In this document: piece by piece, positions 3,405-25,498 of the stretch
Layout: the number at the start of each line of letters is the position of its first letter
Position numbering within the stretch: the first letter of the stretch is position 1
Assembly: GCA_963766255.1 (NCBI GenBank)
Contig: CAVXZZ010000037.1
Coordinates: forward strand, 16,960 to 48,959
Reading direction: 5' to 3'
Length of the DNA: 32,000 nt
Origin: an uncultured delta proteobacterium
GTDB lineage: Bacteria; Desulfobacterota; Desulfobacteria; Desulfobacterales; JAFDCJ01
The notes under the pieces: generated by a model
Seen by the model: only the letters and a program-made list of their open reading frames with translations
Told to the model about the DNA's origin: nothing
The model's database searches: none
Position numbers and translations under genes: made by a program

Positions 3405-4629
3405 ATGGAAAAACCACCCGCGATTGCCGTCCTTGGAACCTTCGACTCGAAATCCGAAGAGCACATTTTCTTAAAAAACCAGATTGAACAACGGGGAATC
3501 GGAACCTTGACCATCAATGTGGGAACCCGTATGCCTTCCCCGGTGCCGGTGGATCTGGATTTGCTCGAAATCGTCAAAGCCGGCAACCCGGCTATCGCCG
3601 ACGGCCGGGATAATATCATCAATGCCATGCTGCAGGAGGCCAAAGACCAAATCAAGAAACTGCATGGGGATGGCAAAATCAGCGGCATCATATCCGCCGG
3701 AGGCGGCACCGGAACCCATATCTGCACCACCATCATGCATGAACTGCCATTAGGGGTTCCCAAAGTCATGGTATCCACCGTGGCTTCCCGTGACATGTCC
3801 CGGGTCGTCGGCACCAAAGACATCGTTATGATCCACAGTGTCGCCGATTTATTGGGCGTAAACAGTATATCCGGCTTAATACTGGACAAGGCCGCAGCGG
3901 GCATATGCGGCATGGTTAAAAGCCACTGGCAACCGTCAGGGCAAAAAAAACGCATCGCCCTGCCCTTTTTCGGATTCATTACTCCGGGTGCCGAAGCCAC
4001 CCGCCAGGCCTTGGAATCACTGGGGTATGAAGTCATTGCCTTCCATGCCAACGGCATCGGCGGCATGGCGATGGAGGAGCTGGCCGCAGAAGGATATTTC
4101 CACGGCATTCTGGATCTGGCCACCCACGAACTGGCCGATGATTTAATGGATGGCTATTGCGGCGGAATCGGGCCCGCAGCGTTTTGAACCGGTGCCGGGC
4201 AGATCAATTCCCAGGCTGGTGGTTCCCGGGGGACTTGACTGTGCGGTGCTGGAATTTACCCGCACCAGCATTCCGAAACAATACGAAGATCGCAAAATCT
4301 TTTTTTACGACTTTCGCTCTGCCATTCGTTTGAATGAGGAAGAAACTTCTTTTTTAGCAGCTCAACTGGCAGAAAAGCTCAATAAGGACCCTGCTCATAT
4401 CAGGGTACTGGTGCCCACCAGGGGCTGGTCCGGTGCCGATAAACAAAACGGTCCCTTGTACGACCCGGACATGAATCAGGTCTTTCTCCAGAAATTCAGG
4501 CAAGTTATAGATTCTCAAATCGAAATCCAGGAAGTTGAACATCACATTAACGATAAAGCCTTTGGGCAAATTGCCGCAACTGTTATGGATAATATGGTAA
4601 AATGTGCTAAATTAGACAATCATTCATAA
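3405..4629 (+). pseudogene. UPF0261 (Tm-1 N-terminal-like, putative ATP-binding) family gene with a single +1 frameshift near 4165-4175
   Basis: ORFs 3405-4187 and 4150-4629 are collinear with the intact paralogue at 5435-6661. For example, GVPKVMVSTVASRD matches GLPKVMISTMASRD, and IPRLVVPGGLD...VRVLVPTRGWSGADKQNGPLYDPD matches IPTILVPGNID...VKILVPMNGFSAFDHKEGPLHDPE. Removing one base from ggg/ccc at 4170-4175 restores GGIGPQRFEP. Confidence 0.75.
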
Positions 4630-4757
4630 TACTATATAAGCACACCAAACTCTGATTGTGACCGGTTAATAAACCCTATCAAATACAAAACCTGTTTCCT
4701 TGACAATTGGCTTATGGGATATTAGACGAGTCTTGAACCAGTCTAAGGAGGTCAATT

Positions 4758-4997
4758 ATGGAAACTGTCGGTGCTTACCATGCGAAGACGCATCTGCCCA
4801 AGTTAATAGAGCGCGTACAAAAAGGGGAACGTATTATCATCACAAAGCACGGGGTTCCAGTAGCGGTATTGCAAGCCCCTGATCCTGAAAAAAATTTTGA
4901 TTTCAAATCAGTTGTCGACGAACTGTGCAAATTCCGGGACAGGCACAGCCTCGGCGGGCTTTCAATCCGTGAGATGATTGAAGAAGGCAGACGATAG
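4758..4997 (+). CDS. Type II antitoxin, Phd/YefM family
   Basis: 79-aa ORF beginning METVGAYHAKTHLPKLIERVQKGERIIITKHGVPVAVLQ, a typical Phd/YefM N-terminus. A perfect SD (aaggagg) sits 7 nt upstream. Its stop codon directly abuts the ATG of the PIN gene (tagatg). Confidence 0.8.
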   Translation: METVGAYHAKTHLPKLIERVQKGERIIITKHGVPVAVLQAPDPEKNFDFKSVVDELCKFRDRHSLGGLSIREMIEEGRR

Positions 4998-5417
4998 ATG
5001 ACCAAACATTTTGTGATCGATAATTCTGTGGTCATGTCATGGTGTTTCAAAGATGAAACAAACAAATATGCCGATGCTATTTTGCACAGGCTTTCCGAGG
5101 CCACTGCTTTCGTGCCTTCGATTTGGCCCTTAGAGGTCGTAAATGTGTTGCTTGTAGCAGAACGTAAAAAGCGTCTTAGCGAGGCCGACAGTGCACGTTT
5201 CATAACCTTGTTAACAAAGCTTCCGATAGTCGTGGAAGTTGACCACCCCGAAAAATCGATGAAAGCGCTTTTATCCTTTGCCAGGGCGAATAGCCTTTCG
5301 AGCTATGACGCTTCATATCTCGACCTGGCAATGAAAAGTGGTTATCCCATAGCCACGTCGGACAAGAAACTAATCCGGGCCGCGAGAAAAATTGATGTTC
5401 CGATTCTATCTGGGTAA
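4998..5417 (+). CDS. vapC: PIN-domain ribonuclease toxin (VapC family)
   Basis: 139-aa ORF with acidic PIN residues in the expected places (FVIDNSV, PLEVVNVL, SYDASYLDLA, ATSDKKL). It is abutted to the antitoxin gene. Confidence 0.8.
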   Translation: MTKHFVIDNSVVMSWCFKDETNKYADAILHRLSEATAFVPSIWPLEVVNVLLVAERKKRLSEADSARFITLLTKLPIVVEVDHPEKSMKALLSFARANSLSSYDASYLDLAMKSGYPIATSDKKLIRAARKIDVPILSG

Positions 5418-5434
5418 TCTTCAGGAGGGAAATT

Positions 5435-6661
5435 TTGGCGAATTCACCAACAGCGCTGATGGTTGCGACCATGGATACCAAAGGCCAGGAAGCCATGTTC
5501 ATAGTTGAATGCCTCAAGGCCGAGGGCATTACCGTAAAGATAATGGATGCCGGTATTAAAGGTCAATGCCCGACCCCGGTGGATGTAACCCGCGAAGAAG
5601 TCGCCCGGGCCGGCGGAAAATCACTGCAGGACGTCCAAAATTTGGGTCATGAAGGCAAGGCCCTCGAAGTCATGACCAGCGGCGCCATTCAATGCGCCCA
5701 GGAATTATACCGCCAAAACCAGGTCCAGGGGGTCATTGGCCTGGGAGGATCCATGGGGACCACCCTTGGCAGCGGGGTGATGCGCAGCTTTCCGGTGGGC
5801 CTTCCCAAAGTCATGATATCCACCATGGCATCCCGCGACACACGCGCCTTTGTGGGAACCAAGGATATTCTCATGCTGCACTCGGTTTGCGACCTCGCGG
5901 GCCTGAACCGAGTCACCCGGAAAATTCTGCGCAACGGGGCCCTGGCCCTGGCGGGTATGCTGCGCTCGGCAGTACCGGATGACGCAGCCGATCAAAGGCC
6001 CCTGGTGTTTGTCTCCACTCTGGGAACCACCGAAGCCTGTGCCCAGCAGATCCGCAGAACCCTGGAAGAAAAGAACAACGAAGTCGTTATCTTCCACACG
6101 GTGGGATCAGGCGGAAAAGCCATGGAAGAGATGATCCAGCAGGAAGATATCTCAATGCTGATAGATTTATCGCTGCATGAAATGGCAGACCACCGATTTG
6201 GCGGTGACTACGATGCCGGTCCCCAACGCGGAACGGTGGCTCTGGATAGAAGAATCCCCACCATCCTCGTTCCCGGCAATATTGACTTTCTGGTCACCGG
6301 CCCTTTGGAAAACGCGCAAAAGCAATTTCCCAACCGCCCCTATCACTGTCACAATGCGGCCATTACGGTTGTCCGAACGAAGCAGGAGGAGATAAAGATA
6401 ATGGGCGAAACCATCGCCAGCCTGTGCAACAACGCCCAGGGACCTGTGAAGATTTTAGTCCCCATGAACGGTTTTTCGGCCTTTGATCACAAGGAAGGCC
6501 CTCTGCACGACCCCGAGGCGCCTGGGATCTTTATAAAAAGCCTGGAGAAAAATCTTAATGATAAATCCTGTTTGGAAGCATTGCCTTTCTACATCAATGA
6601 TTCCGAATTTGCCCGGGAAATTATAGATACGTTGTATCGCATCAACCCTGATATCTCATAG
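5435..6661 (+). CDS. UPF0261 family protein (Tm-1 N-terminal-like putative ATP-binding/kinase-like), intact copy 1
   Basis: 408-aa ORF with a TTG start and an aggaggg SD 5 nt upstream. It is collinear with the 403-aa ORF at 16996-18207 and the split ORF at 3405-4629 (VATMDTKGQE, GLGGSMGT, GLPKVMISTMASRD, GTKDI.MLHSV.D, ILVPGNIDF). Confidence 0.75.
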   Translation: MANSPTALMVATMDTKGQEAMFIVECLKAEGITVKIMDAGIKGQCPTPVDVTREEVARAGGKSLQDVQNLGHEGKALEVMTSGAIQCAQELYRQNQVQGVIGLGGSMGTTLGSGVMRSFPVGLPKVMISTMASRDTRAFVGTKDILMLHSVCDLAGLNRVTRKILRNGALALAGMLRSAVPDDAADQRPLVFVSTLGTTEACAQQIRRTLEEKNNEVVIFHTVGSGGKAMEEMIQQEDISMLIDLSLHEMADHRFGGDYDAGPQRGTVALDRRIPTILVPGNIDFLVTGPLENAQKQFPNRPYHCHNAAITVVRTKQEEIKIMGETIASLCNNAQGPVKILVPMNGFSAFDHKEGPLHDPEAPGIFIKSLEKNLNDKSCLEALPFYINDSEFAREIIDTLYRINPDIS

Positions 6662-6868
6662 AAATCATTAAAATCAGCTTCCAAACAAAAAAATTTCGAA
6701 AAAAAGCACATACGGGTCGATAGTAATAATGCTTATTAATATCAAATTCTAAAAAGATATTCTTATCTCCGAGCGCCATACTGTTGACCTTTTGCGCCAT
6801 TATCGATAGCTGTTTAACATACTGAAATAAATAAAAAGAAAGGCAAGTCTAAAAAGGAAAATCAGCAT

Positions 6869-7906
6869 ATGGCTGTAACGCATCCTTTATCTCCAGCAGA
6901 TATTCTATGGAATATATTAGAAGACTATGGCCATGACGCCGAATCTATATTTCTTGAGGAGGGCATCGATCGTGAAATGATTTTAAAACCGGGGGCGCGT
7001 ATTACCCACGCGAGGGTTGACAGCCTTTGGTCTAAAGTAAACGAACTGATAGACGATCCATGTTACGGGGTGCGGGGCGTAAAATTTTGGCACCCTTCCC
7101 ACTTTAATGCCTTAGGTTATGCCTGGCTTGCAAGCGGTACTTTGCGCGAAGCTCTTAGCCGTGCTGCCCGCTATGCTCACGTTATCGGGGAAGATAGGGA
7201 ACATCGGCTGGAGGATACGGCTGAAGGACTGACCGCTACGTTGTCCCATTCTCTGAAGCTGCCCGCCTTCATGGATTTGTCAATGGCAATTTTGATGTCT
7301 ATGTGTCGGCTTAATTACGGAGCGGAGTTAAACCCGGTGAATGTCAATTTTATCCACGCCAAGCCTGCCTGTGCCAGCGAGCACGATTCCTATTTCAATG
7401 CTCCGGTTAAGTTCAACGCTGATACCGACTGCCTTGCCTTACCGGCAGATGCTGTTGATAAACGCCTGCCGATTGGCAACCCACAGCTTGCCAAAATTCA
7501 CGACCAATATATCATCCGTTATTTAGCAAGATTGGACAAAAATAGCATTGTCCAGCACGTTAAAGGCGTGATTATTGACATGCTGCCTTCGGGTGGGGTT
7601 TCCAATGAAAAGGTGGCAAAAAGATTGAACATGAGTAAGCGAAACCTGCAGCGCAAACTGCAACTCGATCATACTACTTTTCGAACACTGCTGGGCAAGG
7701 TACGCCAGGAGTTTGCAGAAAATTATGTACACGATTCAGCCGTCAGTCTGATGGAGGTGGCATTTATTTTAGGATATTCGGATTACAGTTCTTTTTCGAG
7801 AGCTTATAAGCGTTGGACGGGGGTGTCGCCTGGTGAGGGAAGGCATGAGGCGTTGAATTCAAATCACAATCCACATACAGATATCATCGATCAGTACCGA
7901 GATTAG
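6869..7906 (+). CDS. AraC-family transcriptional regulator with N-terminal AraC-type ligand-binding domain
   Basis: 345-aa ORF with a C-terminal double HTH (VAKRLNMSKRNLQRKLQ...TFRTLLGKVRQEFA...VAFILGYSDYSSFSRAYKRWTGVSP). Confidence 0.8.
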   Translation: MAVTHPLSPADILWNILEDYGHDAESIFLEEGIDREMILKPGARITHARVDSLWSKVNELIDDPCYGVRGVKFWHPSHFNALGYAWLASGTLREALSRAARYAHVIGEDREHRLEDTAEGLTATLSHSLKLPAFMDLSMAILMSMCRLNYGAELNPVNVNFIHAKPACASEHDSYFNAPVKFNADTDCLALPADAVDKRLPIGNPQLAKIHDQYIIRYLARLDKNSIVQHVKGVIIDMLPSGGVSNEKVAKRLNMSKRNLQRKLQLDHTTFRTLLGKVRQEFAENYVHDSAVSLMEVAFILGYSDYSSFSRAYKRWTGVSPGEGRHEALNSNHNPHTDIIDQYRD

Positions 7907-8474
7907 CCGTTTTTTCGCCTTCACGCTTACCCAGTTTTTCTGAAGCCACCTTCCTGGCAGTCACCGTAAAAAACCATCCGGATAGGTTGGATCGCAGCCT
8001 ATCTAACCCTTCCCCATGTGATTCACCGAATCTGTCGATGTCGGTATAAAAACCGGATTTAGTGTAACGCCAGAGTTTATCAGCGTCTTTAACGATCATG
8101 TCATTTAGCGAACGCGGCTTTTGGCGGGAATCATGACCGTCGATGATCTCCAGAATCTTTTCCGTTTTAGAAGAATCATATTTTACTTGCTGCAGTATTT
8201 CCTGGGCGATTTTTACCCCTTCCACTTCATGGAGCCGATTTAACTCGGGTCTGCTTGTGTTGGGACCGAATGCCTTGAGATGCATATCGGCCGGCACGCC
8301 TTTCCAGCCGGTATCGTGCAGGATAATGGCCGGAATCACAATATCTTCTTCACCGCCTTCCCGTTCCAATAGCTCAAAAGCCAGCAGAGTCGATATTTCG
8401 GTATGAACATCATTGTGACGGGTGTTCAGAAAAGGCCTGGCAAGTTGCCGGATTTTTTCGAAAACAGATTTCAT
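7884..8474 (-). CDS. HD-domain metal-dependent phosphohydrolase
   Basis: 196-aa ORF with H...HD signature residues (VHTEIS..., AIILHDTGW, IDGHDS, KDADKL). It overlaps the lysR-type gene by 4 nt (ATGA), which suggests one operon. Confidence 0.7.
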   Translation of the reverse strand: MKSVFEKIRQLARPFLNTRHNDVHTEISTLLAFELLEREGGEEDIVIPAIILHDTGWKGVPADMHLKAFGPNTSRPELNRLHEVEGVKIAQEILQQVKYDSSKTEKILEIIDGHDSRQKPRSLNDMIVKDADKLWRYTKSGFYTDIDRFGESHGEGLDRLRSNLSGWFFTVTARKVASEKLGKREGEKTANLGTDR

Positions 8475-9430
8475 TTGGCAGCTGTTCTTCGTTGGGCAAG
8501 TATTTTAGTCATCATCGCGCCTATACCCATGGGATCGATATCTGATGCCCTCAATTTTATCAAGGTATCCACAAAGGCCTTAGCGGGCGGCGAAAGGGGT
8601 TGATTTTTTAAATACGCAATGCTGACATCCAAATATATTTGCGGATTTTTTAATGGCACAGAAGCCAGTTTTTTTTCCCTCAACTCTAATGCGACGGCCT
8701 CTTTTACCACCATCGAGATACCGTCACTGCGCTGAACCAGCTGTTTGATAAATTCGGTATTACTGGTCTCCATTAAAATATCGGGCTCACAGTTCGCATT
8801 CGCAAATGACTGCTCTACCAGTTTCCGCGTTCCCGATCCTTTTTCTTTCATAATAAATGGCTCTTTCGCCAGATCTTCGAAAGACACAGCCTTTTTGCGC
8901 CTAAAAGGATGTTCGGGCGCTACGATGAGCGCCATTTCCTCTTTACTGAAGGGATGGAAATTAACTTCGGGCACGTCCTCTGCTTTGGCAATCACGGCTA
9001 CTTCATTTTTAAATTCAAGAAGGCTGTAGGTCATGTCCAGGGAACTGCCTTCATTTAACTGGATTTTGATGTCGGGGTGGCTTTCGTGAAAGCTAGTCAG
9101 CATCAGCGGCATGAAATAGCGGGCGTAGGCTTTAGTGGTTCCCAGGCTGAGGACTCCCCGCTTGAGTTCGTGCATGTCTTCAATGGCATTTTCGATTTCT
9201 TTTTCATGTTTAAAAATTTTTTCCGCATACCCATAAAGTGTCCGCCCCTCGTCGGTCAGGAACAAATTGCGTCCTTTTTTCCTGAACAGCTTTAAATTGC
9301 AGACCTCCTCAAAAGCCTTCATCTGGGCGGTCACGGCCGGCTGGGTGATAAAAAGCTCACCGGCCGCAACCGTATAATTCAAATTTTTGGCCGCGTGGTA
9401 AAAGACGCGCAATTGGTTGAGGTTTAGCAT
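8471..9430 (-). CDS. LysR-type transcriptional regulator (LTTR)
   Basis: 319-aa ORF with the N-terminal wHTH LNQLRVFYHAAKNLNYTVAAGELFITQPAVTAQMKAFE and a C-terminal LysR substrate-binding fold. It is divergent from the pps-like cluster. Confidence 0.85.
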   Translation of the reverse strand: MLNLNQLRVFYHAAKNLNYTVAAGELFITQPAVTAQMKAFEEVCNLKLFRKKGRNLFLTDEGRTLYGYAEKIFKHEKEIENAIEDMHELKRGVLSLGTTKAYARYFMPLMLTSFHESHPDIKIQLNEGSSLDMTYSLLEFKNEVAVIAKAEDVPEVNFHPFSKEEMALIVAPEHPFRRKKAVSFEDLAKEPFIMKEKGSGTRKLVEQSFANANCEPDILMETSNTEFIKQLVQRSDGISMVVKEAVALELREKKLASVPLKNPQIYLDVSIAYLKNQPLSPPAKAFVDTLIKLRASDIDPMGIGAMMTKILAQRRTAAK

Positions 9431-9444
9431 GTTTCTCCAGAGAT

Positions 9445-9478
9445 CAGATGGCAGAAGACAGAAAACAGATGGCAGATG
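9445..9478. repeat. cagatg/gcagaa low-complexity repeat immediately upstream of the lysR start
   Basis: The sequence is cagatggcagaagacagaaaacagatggcagatg. The reverse complement of 9455-9478 matches 13237-13260 at 23 of 24 positions. Confidence 0.6.
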
Positions 9479-9613
9479 CCATTGAATTCAGAAGGGTCTG
9501 GCTTTCACCGCGTAACCCGCAACGCGCAACCCGTAACAGAATCCAGTGGCCAGCAGCCACTGACAAGTGACGAAAAATTTTGCCTAAAAATTATTTATAT
9601 ATCCAATTGATAG

Positions 9614-9628
9614 ATAAGCTGAGCTTAT
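9614..9628. promoter_or_regulatory. LTTR-type binding box (ATA-N9-TAT / T-N11-A palindrome)
   Basis: ataagc-tga-gcttat is a perfect 6-bp inverted repeat. Its centre lies about 65 nt upstream of the start site predicted from the promoter at 9651-9679, the classical LTTR recognition-site position. Confidence 0.45.
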
Positions 9629-9650
9629 GGGTAACATAAATTTAATTGGT

Positions 9651-9679
9651 TTGACAGTTTTATTTTAATTGTTCATAAA
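9651..9679 (+). promoter_or_regulatory. Candidate sigma70 promoter for the pps-like cluster
   Basis: TTGACA (9651-9656), a 17-nt spacer, then CATAAA (9674-9679). This would give a leader of about 180 nt before the ATG at 9869. Confidence 0.35.
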
Positions 9680-9714
9680 AAACTGAACGTTATTTAACAA
9701 TCCATGGATTTCAA

Positions 9715-9730
9715 AAAAGTGCGCACTTTT
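9715..9730. promoter_or_regulatory. Perfect 16-nt palindrome in the leader of the ppsA-like gene
   Basis: The palindrome aaaagtgcgcactttt is followed by gttttg. The 10-mer aaagtgcgca recurs in reverse complement at 11905-11914, upstream of the ppsB-like gene. Confidence 0.35.
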
Positions 9731-9868
9731 GTTTTGTGGTTCTGACCGGTGTCTTGTTCTCTGTCACTATCTCTTCCTGGTTTGATGGGCGCAATCAAAC
9801 ATCTCTATTCAAGCCGCTTGAGGCTTTTTCAAATATGAATCAATCTCACAACGCAAAGGAGGACGACA

Positions 9869-11725
9869 ATGGCAGATGACAAAGGCAGATTTCCGGATCC
9901 TCACGAGTTTAAAGTCCCCCCGGAGCTTGAAGGCTGGGAGGAAATGTATCCAACCCATCACCTGTTTTCGGAAGATCGGGCTGATTGGGAAAAAGCCCAA
10001 TTCTGGTATGCAGACAAAATCCACGCACCCGAACCTTTGCCTCCTCTGGACCTGATCTTTCAGGAAGCATGGCAGATCTCCCTGTCCCAGTATACGACCC
10101 GCGTATTTTGCATCCCCCCTGCCCAGGGAATTGCCCAGCGACTGGTGGGCTGTTATCTGTACATCTGCGCCATTGCCCCACCGCCCGATGAAATTATCGG
10201 TGAAAAAGCCGCACATTTTGAAAAACGGGTATTTTATGTCTTTGAACACTACGATGAATTGTGGGACAAATGGCTGACCAAATTTAAGGCCCTGGGGGAG
10301 GAAATGCGGGCGGTTAACGTGCCCTCGGAATTGCCTAAATATGTTGCCGATGACAAGGTTTTTCCAGCCCCCACGGGTTACTATGAAAGTTACGACCTGA
10401 TCGAGTCTTTCGACAAACTGGTCAACCAGATGTTCAAAGGCTGGCAGTATCATTTTGAAATGCTCAACTTGACCTACCTGGCCTATCTGATGTTTGCCGA
10501 TGTGTCCCGCAAGCTTTTCCCCGGAATCAGCGAAAGCGCCATCGGAAAGATGGTCGCCGGCGCCTATGTCTCCATGTTTCGACCGGAGGAGGAACTTTGC
10601 AGACTTTCCCGGCTGGCGGTGTCGTCTGATGGTGTCGGTGCTATTCTTGGCAGCGAAAAATCCGCCGCCGATAAGATTGCCGAGCTTCAACAATCAGAAG
10701 CCGGCAAGAACTGGCTGGCCGAATATGATAAATCAAGTGATCCCTGGTTTTATGTATCCAACGGCAGCGGCTGGTATCACCATGAGGGCAGCTGGCTGAC
10801 TGATCCTGACATTCCCTACAGTTATATCAAAGGCTACGTTCAAAGGCTGGAAAAAGGTGAGACCATTGAGCGCTCCCTGGATGAGATCGAGAAGGAACGC
10901 GATGAAATTGTCGCCGAGTACACCAAAATGATACAAACCGACGACGACCGCAAAGCCTTTGACGATGCCTACAACACCATTCGAACCATCTACCGCTACG
11001 CCGAGGATCATCTTTTCTGGGTGGAACATTGGTTTCACACCATCTGGTATAAAAAAATCAGAGAAATTGGATCCGTCCTGGTAGCCAGCGGAATGCTTAA
11101 TGATGTGGACGATATATTTATGTTCAACCGCTACGAAATTCCGCAGCTTCTGACGGAAGTGGCAACCGCCTGGGCCCTGGGTGTGGATATACCGACCCGG
11201 GGGGATCAGTATAAGGCCAAGGCCGCCAAACGCCGCAAAATCCTCGCGGCTGCCGCCGAATGGAACCCGACACCGGCGTTGGGCGTACCACCCGAAGAAG
11301 TGGCCGAGCCCTTCACCATCATGCTCTGGGGTATTACCACCGACAAGGTAAAAGAATGGCTCAAAGGTGTCGATGCAACCAGTGGCGCGGATGTCTCTGA
11401 AATCAAGGGGTTTGCCTCTTCGGCCGGCGTGGTTGAAGGTCCGGCCCGGGTCCTCAAGAGGCTCAAGGACATCACCAAGCTGCAACCGGGTGAAGTTCTG
11501 GTGTGTCCGTCAACCAATCCATCCTGGGCACCGGTTTTCACCAATATCAAGGCCGCGGTAACCGACATCGGTGGATTGACCAGCCATGCAGCAATTGTCT
11601 GCCGTGAATACGGCGTCCCGTCGGTAACCGGCTGCGGTTACGCTACAGCGGCTATCAAAACTGGAGATATTGTTAAAGTCGATGGTGATACCGGTGTTGT
11701 CACGATTGTCAAAAGAGCGGGTTAG
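9869..11725 (+). CDS. ppsA: Phenylphosphate synthase alpha-subunit-like protein (PEP-utilising enzyme with C-terminal mobile phosphohistidine domain)
   Basis: 618-aa ORF with an aggagg SD 7 nt upstream. The C-terminal GGLTSHAAIVCREYGVPSV is the PEP-utilizer phosphohistidine motif. The N-terminal EGWEEMYPTHHLF...FWYADKIHAPEPLPPLD resembles what I recall of Thauera PpsA. The size matches the 70-kDa subunit. Confidence 0.7.
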   Translation: MADDKGRFPDPHEFKVPPELEGWEEMYPTHHLFSEDRADWEKAQFWYADKIHAPEPLPPLDLIFQEAWQISLSQYTTRVFCIPPAQGIAQRLVGCYLYICAIAPPPDEIIGEKAAHFEKRVFYVFEHYDELWDKWLTKFKALGEEMRAVNVPSELPKYVADDKVFPAPTGYYESYDLIESFDKLVNQMFKGWQYHFEMLNLTYLAYLMFADVSRKLFPGISESAIGKMVAGAYVSMFRPEEELCRLSRLAVSSDGVGAILGSEKSAADKIAELQQSEAGKNWLAEYDKSSDPWFYVSNGSGWYHHEGSWLTDPDIPYSYIKGYVQRLEKGETIERSLDEIEKERDEIVAEYTKMIQTDDDRKAFDDAYNTIRTIYRYAEDHLFWVEHWFHTIWYKKIREIGSVLVASGMLNDVDDIFMFNRYEIPQLLTEVATAWALGVDIPTRGDQYKAKAAKRRKILAAAAEWNPTPALGVPPEEVAEPFTIMLWGITTDKVKEWLKGVDATSGADVSEIKGFASSAGVVEGPARVLKRLKDITKLQPGEVLVCPSTNPSWAPVFTNIKAAVTDIGGLTSHAAIVCREYGVPSVTGCGYATAAIKTGDIVKVDGDTGVVTIVKRAG

Positions 11726-11851
11726 TATTTAGTTGAAGTGTTGATTGGTTGATTAGTTGTGGCCGTAGCTGAAATTCAGCTGAATCATACCGATTCGATT
11801 TCAACCAATTAGAAAATGCGCAAAACCTTCTAATCCAAAACGATAGTTCTC

Positions 11852-11889
11852 TCCCGGTTCCCGCCCCCTGATGGGGCTGGGAACCGGGA
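11852..11889 (+). repeat. Extended GC-rich hairpin with CUGAU loop
   Basis: The structure is tcccggttcc-c-gcccc-ctgat-ggggc-tg-ggaaccggga. It has a 10-bp outer and a 5-bp inner stem. It is related to the cccggtttc-ctgaa-gaaaccggg hairpin at 16698-16724. Confidence 0.55.
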
Positions 11890-11947
11890 AGAAGGTGATT
11901 AACTTGCGCACTTTCAAAGATCCCCTATAATTTGCGGGAGAACGCTA

Positions 11948-13018
11948 ATGGACTTAATCCTGGATTTTAAAAAGCTCAATAAAAGTTCCCTGCCATTGGT
12001 CGGTGGTAAAAATGCCAGCCTGGGAGAAATGATCAATGCCGACATCCGGGTGCCTCCGGGCTTTGCCGTCACCACCGACAGCTATGCGGTGTTTATGGAA
12101 AAAGCCGGCATTAATGATACGATATTTAGTCTGCTGGCGGACCTGGATCCGGATAATATCGATGCACTCAACCAGGCCGCCGAAAAAGTCCAGGAAATGA
12201 TCAGAACTGCGGTCATCCCCGATGATGTCCAAAAAGGCATCAGCGACGGGTATTCTCTGCTGTGCGAACAATGCAAAGTTGATGCCCTTCCGGTGGCTGT
12301 AAGATCCAGCGCAACCGCCGAAGATCTGCCCACGGCCAGTTTCGCCGGGCAGCAGGACACGTATCTCTGGATAATGGGCGCTGACCGGGTTATTGAAAGC
12401 GTCCGCAAATGCTGGGCCAGCCTGTATACGCCGCGGGCCATCAGCTACCGGGTCAAAAATGACTTCCCCCATGAAAAGGTTCTGATCAGCGTCGGTGTTC
12501 AGAAAATGGTGAACTCAAGGGCAGCCGGCGTGATGTTCACCCTGAATCCCACCGACGGTGATATTTCCAAAGTTGTGCTTGAAGGCAGCTGGGGACTGGG
12601 AGAAACAGTCGTATCCGGTTCGGTCAACCCGGACAAATTCGTCGTCGACAAGGTCATGGGGGAGATCAATGACCGAACCATCTCTACCAAACACATCGAG
12701 TGTGTCTTTGACGTTGAAAAAGGAGAAACCATCGACGCCGATGTGGACGAAGACATGCAGTGCACCTGCTGTCTCGAGGACGAGGAAATAAAAGAACTGG
12801 TCAAAATAGCCAAAACAATAGAGGCCCACTACGGCCGCGCCATGGATATCGAGTGGGCCATCGACAAGGATTTTTCGTTCCCGGAAAGTATTTTCATTGT
12901 CCAGGCACGCCCGGAAACGGTCTGGAGCCAGCGCAAGGTAGAATCCAAGCTCGGCAAAAAAACCGGATATCAATTGTTGATGGATCAGGCCATGAAACGG
13001 ATTAAACTGCCGGGATAA
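11948..13018 (+). CDS. ppsB: Phenylphosphate synthase beta-subunit-like protein (PPDK_N ATP-grasp, PEP/pyruvate-binding domain)
   Basis: 356-aa ORF with the N-terminal LVGGKNASLGEM and the signatures RSSATAEDLPTASFAGQQDTYL and MDIEWA, which mark the nucleotide-binding domain of PEP synthase/PPDK. The size matches the 40-kDa PpsB. Confidence 0.7.
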   Translation: MDLILDFKKLNKSSLPLVGGKNASLGEMINADIRVPPGFAVTTDSYAVFMEKAGINDTIFSLLADLDPDNIDALNQAAEKVQEMIRTAVIPDDVQKGISDGYSLLCEQCKVDALPVAVRSSATAEDLPTASFAGQQDTYLWIMGADRVIESVRKCWASLYTPRAISYRVKNDFPHEKVLISVGVQKMVNSRAAGVMFTLNPTDGDISKVVLEGSWGLGETVVSGSVNPDKFVVDKVMGEINDRTISTKHIECVFDVEKGETIDADVDEDMQCTCCLEDEEIKELVKIAKTIEAHYGRAMDIEWAIDKDFSFPESIFIVQARPETVWSQRKVESKLGKKTGYQLLMDQAMKRIKLPG

Positions 13019-13027
13019 CGAAACAAA

Positions 13028-13231
13028 GAATTCGGAAGTAGGAATGCGGAATGTGGAAATCAAGGGAGGGTAAAGGGAGAAGGGCTTAGAATGCAAAATG
13101 GTAAAGGCCGCCAGCTAACGTCACGTTAAAGCCTGAGTATGTCACAGCAGGCAAGTGTTAAAACCCAGAAGTAAAAAACCAGATACGTGGCCTTTTGTAA
13201 TTCCACATTCCATATTTCAACTTGCGAATTC
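13028..13231. repeat. About 204-bp palindromic intergenic element
   Basis: The arm gaattcggaagtaggaatgcggaatgtggaaat (13028-13060) pairs with the reverse complement of 13199-13231 (gaattcgcaagttgaaatatggaatgtggaatt) at about 27 of 33 positions. Inner pairing involves aaaggcc (13103-13109) and ggcctttt (13190-13197). Confidence 0.6.
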
Positions 13232-13236
13232 AAATA

Positions 13237-13260
13237 CATCTGACATCTGTTTTCTGTCTT
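13237..13260. repeat. 24-nt motif shared with the lysR leader
   Basis: catctgacatctgttttctgtctt matches the reverse complement of 9455-9478 (catctgccatctgttttctgtctt) at 23 of 24 positions. Confidence 0.6.
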
Positions 13261-13360
13261 TGCTTGAGAGATACTTATGCATCTCCGAAGTAAGACCCAC
13301 TTAGGATAGAAATAAATATAATTCGTTAACTAAAAAATAAGAGAGGAGAACTGTATCAAA

Positions 13361-14794
13361 ATGAAAGACATGAGAGATTTTGTAGCAAAGGGCGAAGAAG
13401 TTGGTTTGTGCCAAAGGATCACCGCCGAAGTCGACTGGAACCTGGAACTGTCGCATATTGCCAAGCTCAATGAAGAGGCCGGCGGCCCGGCGCTTCTTTT
13501 TGAAAACGTGAAAGATTATGATACGCCGGTTATTACCAGTGTATGCACCACAACTAACAGGCTGGCTTTGATAATGGGCCAGCCCCTTGGATCCTCTCTG
13601 ACCGAGCTTTACGAAGAATGGGCCCGGCTCGGTGAAAACCTGGTTAAACCCAAAATGGTGGAATCCTCAGCCGCCCCCTGTAAGGAAAATATCCTGACGG
13701 GTGATGACATCGATCTTGCAAAGTTTCCGGTGCCGCACTGGTATCCCCGGGACGGCGGACGCTATATGGGCACCGCCCATTTCATCATCAGCAAAGACCC
13801 CGAAACCGGCTGGGTTAACCTGGGAACCTACCGCGGCCAGATGCTTGGCAAAGATAAGATGGGCACTTTGTTTATCAAGGGCAAACATGCCGACATCATG
13901 CTGAAAAAATACCAGGCCATGGGCAAGCCCATGCCGGTAGCTTCGGTAATCGGCTGCGATCCCTTGCTGTTTATCCTGGGCGCGGCCCGGGTCTCGGCAT
14001 TTACATCGGAATATGACGTCGCTGGGGCATTGCGCGGTGAACCCGTGGAAGTCGTCAAGGGGGAAACCGTGGACCTTCCCATACCGGCCCACGCGGAGAT
14101 CGTCATCGAAGGCGAAGTGGATGCCGACAAATTTATGGAAGAAGGCCCCTTCGGCGAATACACCGGGTATTATTCCGGTGTCGGCACGAACCCGCGCAAT
14201 TTCATCGATGTCAAATGCATAACCCACAGAAACAACCCCATTTTTTGGGGAACCACCGTGGGCCGGGCCGTCACCGACACCCATATGACCATGGCGCTTT
14301 CATACGGCGCAACCCTGTGGCAGCAGCTGCTGGCTATGAAAATTCCCGGACTCAAAGCGGTGTACTGCCCGCCCGAAGGCTCCGGACGATTCCTGGCCAT
14401 CATCTCCATTAAGCAGATGTATCCCGGACACGCCGACCAGGTACTCACCGCCGCCATCTCAACCGAGATGGGTGCCTACGGGCTCAAAACCGTCATCGTG
14501 GTGGACGAAGATATCGACCCCTGGGATATTCCCCGGGTCATGTATGCACTAAGCTTCCGCTTCCAGCCCAACCGGTCCCAGGTTATCAAACGCGGCCGGT
14601 CAACACCCCTGGATCCCTCGCTGCCCATCAGCGCCAGAGACATCACCGGCAGGTTGCTGCTGGATGCCACCATACCTTACGACTGGAAAGAGAAACCAAT
14701 CCCCATCAAATTGGATCCGGAAATGGTTGAAAAGGTCAAAGGCCGATGGAAGGAACTGGGCTTGGATAAAATTTCTTCGGATAAATACTTATAG
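13361..14794 (+). CDS. ubiD: UbiD-family prFMN-dependent (de)carboxylase, phenylphosphate carboxylase alpha/beta-subunit-like
   Basis: 477-aa ORF with UbiD hallmarks: GPALLFENVKDY, EGPFGEYTGYY and an IEGE acidic patch. ITAEVDWNLELSHIAKL at the N-terminus and ATIPYDWKEKP at the C-terminus resemble what I recall of PpcA/PpcB. Confidence 0.8.
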   Translation: MKDMRDFVAKGEEVGLCQRITAEVDWNLELSHIAKLNEEAGGPALLFENVKDYDTPVITSVCTTTNRLALIMGQPLGSSLTELYEEWARLGENLVKPKMVESSAAPCKENILTGDDIDLAKFPVPHWYPRDGGRYMGTAHFIISKDPETGWVNLGTYRGQMLGKDKMGTLFIKGKHADIMLKKYQAMGKPMPVASVIGCDPLLFILGAARVSAFTSEYDVAGALRGEPVEVVKGETVDLPIPAHAEIVIEGEVDADKFMEEGPFGEYTGYYSGVGTNPRNFIDVKCITHRNNPIFWGTTVGRAVTDTHMTMALSYGATLWQQLLAMKIPGLKAVYCPPEGSGRFLAIISIKQMYPGHADQVLTAAISTEMGAYGLKTVIVVDEDIDPWDIPRVMYALSFRFQPNRSQVIKRGRSTPLDPSLPISARDITGRLLLDATIPYDWKEKPIPIKLDPEMVEKVKGRWKELGLDKISSDKYL

Positions 14795-14866
14795 CCGATA
14801 GCCCATAGCCCCGCCTTAGGCGGGGCTCATAGCAAAGGATTTCACTGCTATGGGCGTCAGCTATTG
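14794..14866. repeat. Inverted-repeat element with central GC hairpin just after the ubiD-like stop
   Basis: The arm gcccatagc (14801-14809) pairs with gctatgggc (14847-14855). The central hairpin is agccccgcc-tta-ggcggggct (14807-14827). No U-tract follows, so it is not a canonical terminator. Confidence 0.5.
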
Positions 14867-14972
14867 TTTAATAAATATCTTAGGCTATTTGCTTTCATTC
14901 AAAGTTAAAAGACCGCTGTTCTAACAATCAGATTACAGCTATGAACTATGGGCTTCTACTAGGAGGTATTAA

Positions 14973-16628
14973 GTGAAACCAATTCGCTATACACAGGAAA
15001 TGGTGGATGAATTTTTAAATGACGGATATTGGACCCAGGAGCTTTTTTATGATTTCTGGGAAAGAAACGCCCGCGAATTCGGCGACCAGGAAGCCCTGGT
15101 GGATTCAAAGTACCGCGTCACCTGGGCCGAGGCTAAAAAATTGGTGGATGCCATCGCCTACACCTGGGTACAGATGGGCATTCCCAAATCGTCCCGCATT
15201 ATTATTCAGTCGCCCAACAGTGTCTATGGATTCCTGGCACGCATCGCAGCTGAAAGGGCCGGTCTTATTTCTCTGACCGTCTACCCCTATTTGCGGGAAA
15301 GAGAATTGACCTACATGGTGGAGAGAACCGAGGCATCCGCCGTTGTTATTTTGAATGAATACCGCAATTTCAATTATCTTGAAATGTACCGCGATCTTCA
15401 GAAGAAATTCCCCCATCTGGAAAAGATTTTTCTCTTCGACGATGAAGTTCCGGCCGGAGCACCGGAAGGAACCTATTCGCTAACCCAACTGGCCCAGGCG
15501 GCGGCTGAAAAGCCCATCGACGAAGAGGCCCTTAAAGCACGCCGATTGGACCCAATTTGGGATATCGCCCTGCTGACAACGACATCGGGAACCACCGGCA
15601 TACCCAAACTGGTGGAATGGCCCACCGCCCCCCGGGTATGCACCTCGAAAGGCCGGGTGGATATCTGGGGCCTTACCAACAAAGATACCACCATGGCGAT
15701 TGCACCCCACGCCGGTGGTGCCGCCGGCACCCTCACCTATTTTGCCGCTCCCATAGCCGGTGCCAAGACGGTCATGCTGGAGGAATTCAATCCGGAAGCC
15801 GCTTTAGCCCTGATTGAAAAAGAGAAAGCCACCGCCATCGGGGTGGTGCCGACCCATCTGGTGCGAATGCTCGAAGTAGATGCCTCCAAGTACGACTTGA
15901 GCTCCCTGCGCTTTATCCGTTCCGCCGGTGGCTATCTCTCTCCCCAGATTGCTGAAGAAGCCGAAACCGCCTTTGGTGCCAACATTACCAGTGACCTGGG
16001 CACCCAGGACATGGGATCGGTTTCGGGTTGCCGGGTGGAGGATTCCAAAGACCTTCGCCGCCGAACCGTCGGGCGCATGCTACCGGGCAACAAGGTGAGA
16101 CTGCTCGACAAGGACACCAACGAGCCGGTGGCCGATGGCGAACCCGGGGTGTTGTATTTCAGAGGCCCCCATGCACCGGCCGGCTATTATCGCGACGAAG
16201 AATTGACGTCCACGGTTTTCGATCCCAAGGGCTGGACCACTACCGGTGATATTGTGAAATTTGACCAGGAATGCCTGTGGATCCTGGGCCGGGCCAAGGA
16301 CATGATTATTCGCGGCGGTCAGAATATTTATCCCGCGGAAATCGAAGGCCTGCTCAATGATCATCCCAAGGTCGCCTCGGTGGCCGTTGTGGGATATCCG
16401 GACCGGGAAATGGGGGAACGGACCTGCGCTTATGTCATCGCCAAAGGCGGCCAGGATTTCAGTTTTGAAGAAATGGTTGAATTTCTCAAGGGCAAAAAAC
16501 TGGCCATGTACAAACTGCCCGAACGCCTCGAAGTCGTTTCCGAATTCCCGGCCGTAGGTGATTCCGGGAAAGTAAATAAAGAAACGCTCAAAAAGGAAAT
16601 TGCAGAAAAAGTAGCCAAGGGCGAATAA
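14973..16628 (+). CDS. AMP-forming acyl/aryl-CoA ligase (ANL superfamily, aryl-acid DhbE/EntE-like N-terminus)
   Basis: 551-aa ORF with a GTG start and an aggagg SD. The AMP-binding motif is TTTSGTTGIPK. The N-terminal GYWTQELFYDFWERNAREFGDQEALVD resembles aryl-acid adenylating enzymes. The C-terminal A10 lysine context is GDSGKVNK. Confidence 0.8.
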   Translation: MKPIRYTQEMVDEFLNDGYWTQELFYDFWERNAREFGDQEALVDSKYRVTWAEAKKLVDAIAYTWVQMGIPKSSRIIIQSPNSVYGFLARIAAERAGLISLTVYPYLRERELTYMVERTEASAVVILNEYRNFNYLEMYRDLQKKFPHLEKIFLFDDEVPAGAPEGTYSLTQLAQAAAEKPIDEEALKARRLDPIWDIALLTTTSGTTGIPKLVEWPTAPRVCTSKGRVDIWGLTNKDTTMAIAPHAGGAAGTLTYFAAPIAGAKTVMLEEFNPEAALALIEKEKATAIGVVPTHLVRMLEVDASKYDLSSLRFIRSAGGYLSPQIAEEAETAFGANITSDLGTQDMGSVSGCRVEDSKDLRRRTVGRMLPGNKVRLLDKDTNEPVADGEPGVLYFRGPHAPAGYYRDEELTSTVFDPKGWTTTGDIVKFDQECLWILGRAKDMIIRGGQNIYPAEIEGLLNDHPKVASVAVVGYPDREMGERTCAYVIAKGGQDFSFEEMVEFLKGKKLAMYKLPERLEVVSEFPAVGDSGKVNKETLKKEIAEKVAKGE

Positions 16629-16634
16629 ATTGAG

Positions 16635-16911
16635 GAATGGATTCTGTTTAAATTTAAAAAAGTAGACAGGATTTACAGGATTATTAGGATTATTTTATTC
16701 CCGGTTTCCTGAAGAAACCGGGAATAGCCTATCCGCTTCGCGGAAGGAGTATCTTGTCACTACCAAACCTTCTAAACTAATATAGGATGTGGTCTTAACT
16801 CTTTTCCGCCGGCAGGCGGATGATACTTTCACGGTTTCTTCTGGAAACCGTGAAAATCTTGTAGATCCTGTTAATCCTGTCAAAATGTTTTTTAAAAATA
16901 GAATCCATTCA
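16635..16911. repeat. About 277-bp MITE-like element with roughly 55-bp imperfect terminal inverted repeats
   Basis: The left arm is gaatggattctgtttaaatttaaaaaagtagacaggatttacaggattattaggatt (16635-16690). The reverse complement of 16853-16911 is gaatggattctatttttaaaaaacattttgacaggattaacaggatctacaagatt. Internal hairpins lie at 16698-16724 (loop ctgaa), 16806-16819 and 16829-16851. No ORF is present. Confidence 0.65.
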
Positions 16912-16995
16912 TTTTTCTATCTCAGATATGCTGGACCGCTTCTCATTACCTTGTGGCATCCAATAAATTCTTAACCGCGTATAGCAGGAAAATTT

Positions 16996-18207
16996 ATGCC
17001 AAAACCAGTTCTAGTTATTTCTACTCTGGATACCAAGGGGCAGGAGACCCTGTATCTCAAAGACAAATTAAGCGCCATCGGATTATCGCCCGTTGTAATG
17101 GACATCTCCGGGCGCGGCAGTGATATTGCCGGAATCGATGTTCCTGCGGCCCGTGTCGCGGAAGCGGGCGGCGGCGACTTTGAAGAAATGAAAAATTCCC
17201 GCGATCGAACCCGCATCACCAACATCATGATGGCAGGCGGTGCCCAGATTGCAGCTGATTTGCTGGCCGGGGGAAAGCTCGCCGGGGTTATTGCCCTGGG
17301 GGGATCAACGGGTTCTTTGATGGGCTCCGAGATAATGAGGTCACTGCCCTTCGGGATTCCCAAAGTGATGATTTCATCGACAGCTGCCCTGCCCGGTCTA
17401 TCCACCCGCTACATCGGGACCGGGGATATCGCCCTCTTCCATTCGGTGGTCGAAATATCCGGCGTTTCCAATCTGCTTAAAAATGTCATGGACCGCGCAG
17501 CCCACGCTTTAGCGGGAATGGTTGCCGATGATATCTCCTCACCCAAGGCTGAAAAGGGCAAAGCCATTGCCCTGACCATGCTGGGACCCTGTGAAAAATG
17601 CGCCAGTGCGGTGCGAATGGCATTGGAGCAGCACGGTTATCAGGTCATCGGATTTTCAGCCGCCGGCATAGGCGACCGCGCCATGGAAGACATGATCGCA
17701 GCAGGTTTTTTCCAGGGTGTCATCGATCTGGCACCGGGTGGTGTCGGCGAACATCACTTCGGTTTTATGCGGGATGCCGGCCCCCATCGTCTGGAAACCG
17801 CCGGGAAATCAGGCATCCCCCAGATTATTTCCACCTGCAGCGTAAACCACATGACCCCGGCCCGGTCCAAGTATAAATCGGAATACCACGAACGGCGCAA
17901 GTTCGATCTGGACAAATTGCGCACCTGGATCCGGCTGTCCCCTGATGAGTTAAAAGAGGTTGCCGGCATTTTTGCCGAAAAACTGAACCAGGCCAAAGGG
18001 CCGGTAACCGTCATAATCCCGACGGATGGATGGTCGGCAGCGGATTTACCCGGCAACGACACCCATGACCCGGCCGAAGACCGACTTTTTATTGAAGTGT
18101 TGCGGGAAAAACTCAAACCCGATGTTCAAATACTGGAAGTTGATGCCAACATGGAAGATCCCGAGTTTGCCAAAGCAGTGGTTGAAAACGCGTTAAAAAT
18201 ATTTTAA
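16996..18207 (+). CDS. UPF0261 family protein (Tm-1 N-terminal-like), intact copy 2, embedded in the UbiD/UbiX cluster
   Basis: 403-aa ORF that is collinear with 5435-6661 (ISTLDTKGQE, ALGGSTGS, GIPKVMISS, VIIPTDGWSAADLPGNDTHDPAED). It ends 35 nt before ubiX. Confidence 0.75.
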   Translation: MPKPVLVISTLDTKGQETLYLKDKLSAIGLSPVVMDISGRGSDIAGIDVPAARVAEAGGGDFEEMKNSRDRTRITNIMMAGGAQIAADLLAGGKLAGVIALGGSTGSLMGSEIMRSLPFGIPKVMISSTAALPGLSTRYIGTGDIALFHSVVEISGVSNLLKNVMDRAAHALAGMVADDISSPKAEKGKAIALTMLGPCEKCASAVRMALEQHGYQVIGFSAAGIGDRAMEDMIAAGFFQGVIDLAPGGVGEHHFGFMRDAGPHRLETAGKSGIPQIISTCSVNHMTPARSKYKSEYHERRKFDLDKLRTWIRLSPDELKEVAGIFAEKLNQAKGPVTVIIPTDGWSAADLPGNDTHDPAEDRLFIEVLREKLKPDVQILEVDANMEDPEFAKAVVENALKIF

Positions 18208-18242: not shown

Positions 18243-18848
18243 ATGAACAAACGATTAGTTGTTGGAATATCAGGTGCCAGCGGGGTGACCTATGGCGTCA
18301 GGTTACTGCAGGTGCTTCAAGATACGGATTATGAAACCCATTTGATCATTTCAAAATCCGGTGAGTTAAATATCCAAATTGAAACGGATTATGATCCGGC
18401 TGATGTTAAAGCCATGGCCGATTATGTCTACGATCACAAAAACATCGCGGCATCCCTGGCCAGCGGATCCTTTTTGACCGCCGGCATGGTGGTGGTGCCG
18501 TGCACCATCAAGACCCTGTCGGGAATTGCCAACTCCTACAACGAAAACCTGCTGGTAAGAGCGGCCGACGTGACCTTGAAGGAAAAACGTAAATTAGCGC
18601 TGGTAGTCAGGGAAACCCCGCTGCACAAAGGGCATCTGCGATTATTGACCATGGCCGCCGACATGGGCGCCCATATCCTGCCCCCGGTGCCCTCCTTTTA
18701 CCACATGCCCAAGACCATCGAAGATATAATCGATCAAACCATCGGCAAAATTTTCGACTTCATGGGCATCGAGCACAATCTTTTCAACCGCTGGGGGGAA
18801 GAATCGAAAAATGCCGGGAAAAACGGCTCGCCGTTGAAGGCGGTTTAG
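18243..18848 (+). CDS. ubiX: Flavin prenyltransferase UbiX (prFMN synthase)
   Basis: 201-aa ORF containing RLVVGISGASGVTYGVRLLQ, VVVPCTIKTLSGIA and RAADVTLKEKRKLALVVRETPL. This is the classical UbiX/Pad1 pattern. Confidence 0.9.
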   Translation: MNKRLVVGISGASGVTYGVRLLQVLQDTDYETHLIISKSGELNIQIETDYDPADVKAMADYVYDHKNIAASLASGSFLTAGMVVVPCTIKTLSGIANSYNENLLVRAADVTLKEKRKLALVVRETPLHKGHLRLLTMAADMGAHILPPVPSFYHMPKTIEDIIDQTIGKIFDFMGIEHNLFNRWGEESKNAGKNGSPLKAV

Positions 18849-25284: not shown

Positions 25285-25300
25285 CAGATTTTTTTAAAAG

Positions 25301-25388
25301 GAATGGATTCGATTTTTATTAACAGCTTTTTGACAGGATTTACAGGATTTACAAGATTTTTTTCTTTTTCATTTCCCTGAAGGAAATG
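25301..25388. repeat. Half-copy (one arm plus hairpin) of the 16635-16911 element
   Basis: gaatggattcgatttttattaacagctttttgacaggatttacaggatttacaagatt (25301-25358) aligns with both arms of the 16.6-kb element. It is followed by the hairpin catttcc-ctgaa-ggaaatg (25370-25388), which has the same ctgaa loop. Confidence 0.6.
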
Positions 25389-25498
25389 AAAAAACTTCAT
25401 GCGATCTATCGAATAATATACTGCCAGATCGGAAATGGAATGGTTCTGGGATGTCTGCCGGTCGGAGGAAGAGATAGGAAGCGGCAATGAACTATAAA

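Follow-up and report, generated by a model that had tools for sequence, protein, structure and literature searches.

The first enzymatic activity in the UPF0261 protein family, phenol phosphorylation, was published only in 2025 (JBC, the Journal of Biological Chemistry), for MarK ('multiple aromatic kinase'; Saro_1862 of Novosphingobium aromaticivorans, PDB 9MPY). MarK is a stand-alone homodimer with no TIM-barrel partner that transfers phosphate from adenosine triphosphate (ATP) to the phenolic hydroxyl group of acetovanillone and of similar aromatic compounds, releasing the diphosphate (ADP); its authors regard D14-T15-K16 as the likely ATP site and G195, H219 and H304 as a phenol-binding site kept in more than 90 % of homologues (PMC12624787). 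Here we describe a 32,000 nucleotide (nt) stretch of DNA from an uncultured delta proteobacterium of the order Desulfobacterales (assembly GCA_963766255.1, contig CAVXZZ010000037.1, positions 16,960 to 48,959; hereafter the window), which carries three UPF0261 genes, designated copies A, B and C, the last of them inside a phenol-type phosphorylation and carboxylation operon. The source genome comprises 5.5 Mb in 49 contigs and is 92.7 % complete. The original prediction for this stretch recognized the three genes as old paralogues and suggested a role in aromatic activation chemistry or cofactor supply. It also took the biochemical function of the family to be unknown, a statement that is outdated now that MarK is established as an ATP-dependent phenolic kinase with a solved structure.

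Anaerobic relatives of the window's operon have been described in Thauera and in Desulfatiglans anilini. The delta subunit of the Thauera system is an HAD-type phosphatase that removes the phosphate of phenylphosphate (PMC6114531). Extracts of D. anilini formed phenylphosphate; phenylphosphate carboxylase activity could not be shown in them (PMC6114531). The D. anilini genome encodes a UPF0261 protein of 403 amino acids (aa), H567DRAFT_02057, between ligase 02058 and UbiX 02056 (PMC7500099). Proteome areas for 02057 on 4-aminobenzoate, aniline, benzoate and phenol were 0, 5.0e7, 5.3e7 and 2.5e9, respectively (PMC7500099 Table_1, replicate 1), making the protein about 50-fold more abundant on phenol (PMC7500099). 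The UPF0261 protein of the aniline cluster, 03869, gave areas of 5.4e9, 6.5e8, 0 and 0 on the same substrates (PMC7500099 Table_1, replicate 1). The papers on D. anilini do not discuss either UPF0261 protein and refer to ligase 02058 as 'function unknown' (PMC6114531, PMC7500099), and our literature search returned no paper linking UPF0261 or 'Tm-1-like' with phenylphosphate.

Profile searches placed all three window genes in the family. Copies A (3405..4629, + strand, in two frames separated by a +1 frameshift at ~4176), B (5435..6661, +) and C (16996..18207, +) carry PF06792 and PF23189 in collinear order, each domain scoring 84-227 bits where the cut-off is 27; the PF06792 E-values are 4e-52, 1e-59 and 6.6e-49, respectively, and both pieces of copy A are recognized by Pfam, its PF23189 match being divided over the two frames. 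They are the only PF06792 matches in the whole genome. Pairwise identities over ~400 aa are 30.7 % (A-B), 32.4 % (A-C) and 31.8 % (B-C), close to the one third estimated by eye in the original prediction. Trees of 69 and 111 UPF0261 proteins from related genomes (quick IQ-TREE runs with SH-aLRT support, unrooted in effect) grouped copy B with MarK (SH-aLRT 98-99), placed copy A in a clade of 25 proteins (SH-aLRT 100) whose sister, A', comprises seven proteins from Syntrophus-/Syntrophorhabdus-type loci, and placed copy C in a superclade of 52 (SH-aLRT 99). Each copy groups with orthologues from other families and orders, indicating that the paralogues are old, as had been proposed, and do not stem from a recent duplication. 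A, B and C stand for three lineages of the UPF0261/MarK kinase family that parted long ago.

The reported absence of a TIM-barrel partner from the window extends to the genome as a whole, where a profile search found no PF09370 match. Such a partner had been called usual, which does not hold here: amongst 151 genomes of the same order PF09370 occurs in three, and it adjoins only two of ~70 UPF0261 genes (at G010:C41 and G145:C19), both of them other paralogues. The missing partner is thus the norm and not a loss. The first of these two sites belongs to a genome of the same genus (locus L041) with six UPF0261 genes, in which the TIM-barrel-paired one is a long-branch paralogue that is orthologous to none of A, B and C.

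Copy C occupies the core of the phenol operon. The operon begins with genes for a phenylphosphate-synthase alpha-like protein with a phosphoenolpyruvate (PEP)-utilising mobile domain (PpsA-like; 9869..11725, +; PF00391 E 5.2e-25; NF006153 854 bits against a cut-off of 578) and a phenylphosphate-synthase beta-like protein of the PPDK_N ATP-grasp type (PpsB-like; 11948..13018, +; PF01326 E 5.8e-122). These are followed by a UbiD-family carboxylase gene of the PpcB type (13361..14794, +), the only PF01977 match in the genome, whose product passes the phenylphosphate carboxylase beta-subunit equivalog TIGR02724 (504.8 bits, cut-off 468.95). Next come an AMP-forming aryl-acid ligase gene (14973..16628, +; Pfam AMP-binding), homologous to D. 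anilini H567DRAFT_02058, then copy C and, 35 nt further on, the gene for a UbiX flavin prenyltransferase (18243..18848, +; NF004685 260.8 bits, cut-off 188), so that one copy does lie within a UbiD/UbiX cluster, as originally described. This ubiX is the genome's only UbiX-type gene; the same search returned one longer flavoprotein match (E 2.4e-33), which we read as CoaBC-type.

To place this arrangement in context, we collected every UPF0261 site in the 151 same-order genomes together with 80 copy-C orthologues from all GTDB species, the latter found with a 5-sequence alignment query that returned only copy-C orthologues, and annotated the loci by BLAST against the window proteins and recurrent neighbour families. 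The orthologues share 55-89 % identity and derive from Desulfobacterales, Desulfatiglandales, Syntrophus, Syntrophorhabdales and one Acidobacteriota metagenome-assembled genome. The window's core order of carboxylase, AMP-ligase, UPF0261 and UbiX matches D. anilini 02059-02056 and the 80 orthologous loci, and the operon is shared by relatives known from genomes and from metagenomes. In 64 of the 70 loci whose upstream sequence sufficed, the gene directly preceding C is a ligase gene in the same orientation, overlapping C by 1-4 nt in 14 of those 64, and UbiX follows within 3 kb downstream of C in 43/61 loci. Desulfobacterales display LysR / PpsA PpsB PpcB (response regulator) ligase C (HD) (LpdD-like) UbiX; Desulfatiglandales display LysR / PpcB ligase C UbiX and have ppsA at another site of the genome; and the Syntrophus/Syntrophorhabdus type reads PpcB ligase C PpsA PpsB A' LpdD UbiX. 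Gene order thus varies between orders, yet C keeps its ligase, even in the Syntrophorhabdus-type loci where ppsAB split C from UbiX. Most relatives have a small gene between C and UbiX; it encodes an LpdD-like protein (PF21758 E 1.7e-35), whose only real PDB matches are LpdD chains. No LpdD was found in the window's genome, though most orthologous operons carry the LpdD-like gene, and the response-regulator gene of most orthologous operons is also absent here. A further local feature is a non-coding element of 277 bp with terminal inverted repeats (16635..16911), identified by sequence inspection, which widens the ligase-C spacer to 367 nt against an orthologous median of 43 nt. We also considered whether UPF0261 replaces Pps where ppsAB is missing from the locus and rejected this, since the Desulfatiglandales genomes have ppsA elsewhere.

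The phylogenetic profile points in the same direction as the operon structure. UPF0261 genes are present in 34 of the 151 genomes, namely in 25/27 PpcB-positive genomes and 9/124 PpcB-negative ones, giving strong backing to the predicted link with aromatic activation chemistry, whilst UbiX-type genes occur in roughly 90 genomes (counted from the listing). UPF0261 tracks the PpcB-type single-subunit carboxylase and not UbiX. PpcB matches in G115:C15 (one TAA), G042:C614 (one TAA) and G139:C65 (two TGA) showed internal stops in one search and none in a later family search; these stops are probably alignment-end effects.

This profile bears on an alternative in which one or more of the paralogues would make or handle a precursor of prenylated flavin mononucleotide (prFMN) for UbiX/UbiD, for instance by converting dimethylallyl alcohol to dimethylallyl monophosphate (DMAP) or by acting on a flavin, and would leave the aromatic substrate alone. 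The short distance from C to ubiX, and the presence of UbiX near C at most loci, would suit such a role. In 20 loci an LpdD-like gene separates C from UbiX, and LpdD is a prFMNH2-binding chaperone (PMC10865409). Clade A contributes further points in favour: LpdD-UbiX or CBS-UbiX follows directly on its members, or they adjoin an HpaC-like flavin reductase of the family that includes the prFMN maturase PhdC (PMC13040415), and they also face a riboflavin-kinase-like operon; the pocket is hydrophobic (F196, I197, C283, V285, F302, Y304); and in genus g42 a UPF0261-CBS-LpdD-UbiX block sits on a different contig from ppsAB-ubiD. The LpdD-like and flavin-reductase neighbours constitute real support for the cofactor idea. 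The flavin-reductase neighbour itself was not shown to be PhdC, its PDB matches being generic HpaC-like reductases, and the UPF0261 proteins have neither the LpdD (PF21758) nor the HpaC-like flavin-reductase fold. Against a cofactor role stand the profile, with far fewer genomes carrying UPF0261 than UbiX-type genes; the persistence of C beside its ligase where ppsAB part it from UbiX; the separate paralogues in the two D. anilini clusters for phenol and for aniline, each abundant on its own substrates, a division for which a generic DMAP kinase would have no need; the G146 genome, where UPF0261 is a remnant whilst HD-LpdD-UbiX is intact; and the window's own genome, which lacks any LpdD. On this evidence we consider cofactor supply unlikely. 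That part of the original prediction is disfavoured for copy C, which follows the ligase and the PpcB-type carboxylase and not UbiX generally, and may still apply to the copy A lineage, which adjoins LpdD/UbiX or flavin-reductase genes.

Decayed UPF0261 genes were seen at two loci. At L027 (G146) the gene upstream of HD-LpdD-UbiX is reduced to a 121-aa remnant, and at L025 (G139:C35) two pieces (118 and 129 aa) are left of the gene upstream of LpdD-UbiX; at both loci LpdD-like and UbiX genes are intact. Whether UPF0261 decays where Pps and UbiD are absent has a mixed answer: G146 fits, whilst G139 keeps ppsA/ppcB fragments and its UPF0261 is broken.

Comparison with MarK separated a shared ATP site from divergent pockets. 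Copy B, the MarK-clade member, matches 9MPY over its full length with 39.8 % identity (E 3e-100), copy C does so with 31 % (E 5.5e-52), and copy A is 29 % identical to MarK. An AlphaFold model of copy C (mean predicted local distance difference test score, pLDDT, 87.9) yielded two-domain structural matches only to MarK (Foldseek against 9MPY, E 3.6e-31, template modelling (TM) score 0.64) and to tomato Tm-1 (TM 0.72-0.75 across its chains). The ATP motif reads D-S-K in A and D-T-K in both B and C, and shows little or no variation inside clades A, A', B and C. In the pocket, copy B keeps G195, T196, H219, F283, H302 and H304 of MarK, with H348 replaced by F; copy A presents a hydrophobic set of F196, I197, C283, V285, F302 and Y304 alongside H219; and copy C carries P196, C197, E198, S219, H283, T285 and L304, conserved in 33-36 of 36 clade members. 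Three clade-specific pockets suggest three substrates rather than redundancy. Judged by the MarK phenol site (G195/H219/H304), copy B retains all three residues (G, H, H) and qualifies as MarK-type, with kinase activity predicted from its sequence, whilst copy A retains the site in part (G, H, Y).

Copies A and B lie in a more disturbed part of the window. Relative to its orthologues at L038 and L149, copy A contains one extra base at ~4176; the orthologues are intact, at 401-411 aa. A pattern scan spanning the frameshift site gave a single match, an intact form on one metagenome contig from a different strain (~88 % identity). Directly upstream, relatives carry an intact flavin-reductase gene (159-171 aa), of which the window holds a broken HpaC-like version (2773..3218, +; family PF01613 E 1.7e-25) in two frames (2773-3009 and 3048-3218); tblastn with the relatives' proteins recovered remnants at 2809-2976 (91 %) and 3087-3215 (81 %) in different frames. 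A Phd-family antitoxin gene (4758-4997, +; TIGR01552 E 1.3e-9) and a PIN-domain toxin gene (4998-5417, +; PIN E 5.9e-10) are situated exactly between A and B, which abut in L004, L038 and L149; in same-genus relatives A is intact and directly abuts B. A gene for an AraC regulator, detected in Pfam/NCBIfam scans, has also been inserted around copy B, between it and the HD-protein gene at 7884..8474. On the other side of copy A, the minus strand carries a divergent operon (423-2215) encoding a UbiE-like S-adenosylmethionine (SAM)-dependent methyltransferase (1628..2215; Pfam methyltransferase families), a CTP-dependent riboflavin-kinase-like protein (DUF120; 1139..1567; PF01982 E 3.8e-29) and, as its last gene, a HAD-family, phosphoglycolate-phosphatase-like phosphatase (423..1124; Pfam HAD_2 E 2.7e-35, with NCBIfam matches under cut-off).

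Mapping clade A sites across the phylum (35 loci) revealed several settings: near LysR/ppsA, near C-type genes, before CBS-UbiX, after UbiX beside a flavin reductase, and opposite a HAD/riboflavin-kinase-like/methyltransferase operon. Elsewhere the lineage is found just upstream of a PpsC-like CBS gene or LpdD, then UbiX. A HAD phosphatase gene was present within 3.5 kb in 6/35 loci, and the vicinity included a riboflavin-kinase-like gene in 7/35 and a UbiE-like methyltransferase gene in 9/35. The divergent operon and the flavin reductase recur beside clade A in several families of the order.

The frameshifts in A and in the flavin-reductase gene, together with the inserted toxin-antitoxin pair and AraC gene, might be taken to mean that A and B are a decaying, unrelated module that merely neighbours the phenol operon in this genus; in G085 and G147 an A-B pair does lie away from the C operon. 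Yet most of the 35 loci, which span several orders, have genes of the phenol operon (LysR, PpsA, UbiD, UPF0261-C, UbiX, CBS) no more than 3.5 kb from clade A, and B-type genes also adjoin LysR-ppsA (L032, L114). We therefore judge incidental clustering to be highly improbable.

A further pattern concerns the delta subunit. Three clusters (G003:C24, G035:C82 and G087:C61) carry the PpcB proteins that score highest in TIGR02724, a Thauera-based model (650-675 bits); each PpcB gene has a pair of delta-like HAD genes next to it and shares its contig with ubiX, and no UPF0261 adjoins it. The ~22 single-PpcB operons (~490-520 bits) show the opposite, with UPF0261 present and no delta-like gene at PpcB's side. 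Only PpcB-adjacent positions are informative in this comparison, as the TIGR02726 search for delta subunits was swamped by apparent housekeeping KdsC-like phosphatases, none of them over the cut-off. The pattern fits UPF0261 supplying phosphoryl handling at the carboxylation step.

Building on the shared family and fold, the conserved ATP motif and operon, the phylogenetic profile and the phenol-specific abundance of the D. anilini orthologue, we favour, with confidence a little above even, the explanation that A, B and C are phosphoryl-transfer enzymes acting on phenolic intermediates within the anaerobes' phenol-type phosphorylation/carboxylation gene set. Copy C would be the operon-core paralogue, co-transcribed directly behind the AMP-ligase gene in the PpcB-type UbiD/ligase/UPF0261/UbiX block, and its substrate is probably aromatic; copy B would be a MarK-like kinase of phenolic hydroxyls. 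Each protein is predicted to bind ATP in its N-terminal domain via the D-T/S-K motif and to move a phosphoryl group to or from an aromatic intermediate held in the clade-specific pocket of the C-terminal domain. In single-PpcB systems, UPF0261 may supply the phosphoryl handling that the delta phosphatase, and possibly other missing subunits, perform in the Thauera-type carboxylase.

Several points weigh against this explanation. Nearly all of these genomes encode a Pps-type dikinase, which already makes phenylphosphate, so that a further phenol kinase would seem superfluous. The phenol site of clade C reads G, S, L, with H219 replaced by S in 33/36 members and H304 by L in 34/36, and without these two residues the substrate may be no simple phenol, or C may be no kinase; judged by its phenol site, copy C should not be classed among the MarK-type phenol kinases. 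With frameshifts in both copy A and the flavin-reductase gene, that module, at least, may be non-functional in this organism. The complementarity between delta-like genes and UPF0261 sets three genomes against ~22, which are related and non-independent, and the proteome figures come from one replicate sheet of the supplement (PMC7500099). Kinase activity of A and C, the substrates and the link to the carboxylation step are what we infer from the combined evidence.

The loss of His219 and His304 from clade C also suits a different proposal, that C, and perhaps A, is a non-catalytic ATP-binding partner serving as a nucleotide-dependent regulatory or scaffold subunit of the ligase or carboxylase. 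Tm-1 acts by ATP-bridged protein binding and not by catalysis, the model of C is at least as close to Tm-1 (TM 0.72-0.75) as to MarK (0.64), and C is tightly coupled to the ligase gene, down to the stop/start overlap in 14 loci. However, P196, C197, E198, S219, H283 and T285 are conserved in 33-36/36 clade C members, which suggests that a ligand is held there, and the only bacterial family member studied is an enzyme. We consider a non-catalytic role quite unlikely.

A more specific version of the phosphoryl-transfer explanation would have C, perhaps as a heterodimer with an A-type paralogue, run the MarK reaction in reverse, passing the phosphoryl group of phenylphosphate to ADP and delivering phenolate to the carboxylase with its prFMN, whilst the coupled ligase draws off the product. 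We rate this version as very unlikely. If true, it would take the place of the delta phosphatase of Thauera, a wasteful enzyme, and would regain one ATP for each phenol; it would also explain how the activation of phenol is affordable for sulfate reducers and syntrophs, and would account for the phenylphosphate carboxylase activity that went unseen in D. anilini extracts (PMC6114531).

The remaining window features flank the operon. A LysR-type regulator gene (8471..9430, -; Pfam) is divergent from the phenol operon, and such a regulator is present at 52/87 orthologous loci. It is adjoined by the gene for an HD-domain phosphohydrolase (7884..8474, -; PF01966 E 3.1e-9), whose homologues in relatives either adjoin LysR or separate UPF0261-C from LpdD. 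A NUDIX hydrolase gene recurs at this HD/LysR end of the operon in L014, L018, L020, L022, L024, L076, L077 and L103-L105, and the window has none; one proposed route to DMAP is its formation from dimethylallyl diphosphate (DMAPP) by NUDIX enzymes. Beyond ubiX, a second HD-domain protein gene (19323..19961, -; PF01966 E 1e-6) is kept in the same position in the closest relative, L008. Further downstream, a minus-strand block (23854-28217) encodes an aldehyde:ferredoxin-oxidoreductase-family protein (646 aa), a 4Fe-4S ferredoxin-like protein and a 476-aa protein that had no Pfam or NCBIfam match. The aldehyde:ferredoxin-oxidoreductase block is kept a few kb downstream of the operon in L004, L008, L009, L014, L070, L105 and L119.

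Strict anaerobes carry only the beta-type subunit of phenylphosphate carboxylase, and our census yields two conserved, previously unassigned gene partners of this PpcB: a UPF0261 clade coupled to the ligase, and a second clade beside UbiX and accessory genes. At least one of these partners is abundant specifically on the matching substrate. The reach of the MarK family is thereby widened beyond the aerobic catabolism of lignin monomers to the anaerobic degradation of phenol and aniline, with clade-specific pockets that predict a separate substrate for each paralogue.

Set against the known systems, the window genes share with tomato Tm-1 (PDB 3WRV-3WRY) the two-domain UPF0261 fold and the ATP-binding lysine. 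In Tm-1 the UPF0261 half is fused to a PF09370 TIM barrel, whereas the window's genome has neither a fused nor an adjacent one; the genes are also bacterial, with an operon context, and nothing suggests a role as protein inhibitors. With MarK they have in common the two-domain fold, a length of ~400 aa, a stand-alone form and the ATP motif in all three copies. Unlike MarK, A, B and C lack H348, which binds the ketone in that enzyme, and the Pps-type dikinase co-occurs with them and is not replaced. MarK also acts in aerobic acetovanillone catabolism ahead of a biotin carboxylase, whereas the window genes accompany a prFMN/UbiD-type carboxylase in strict anaerobes. The operon resembles PpsABC/PpcABCD of Thauera aromatica in its PpsA-, PpsB- and PpcB-like proteins, its UbiX-like gene and its logic of phosphorylation followed by carboxylation, but no alpha, gamma or delta carboxylase subunit genes adjoin the window's PpcB, and UPF0261 genes are present in their stead. 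The phe cluster of D. anilini DSM 4660 differs from the window in that the latter has ppsAB directly upstream of the carboxylase gene, carries no 4-hydroxybenzoyl-CoA reductase genes alongside and holds the further paralogues A and B upstream. In its core the likeness is close: the phe cluster has the same succession of PpcB (02059), AMP-ligase (02058), UPF0261 (02057) and UbiX (02056), with ppsA and ppsB nearby, and the ani cluster of the same organism likewise pairs a ligase (03870) with a UPF0261 protein (03869).

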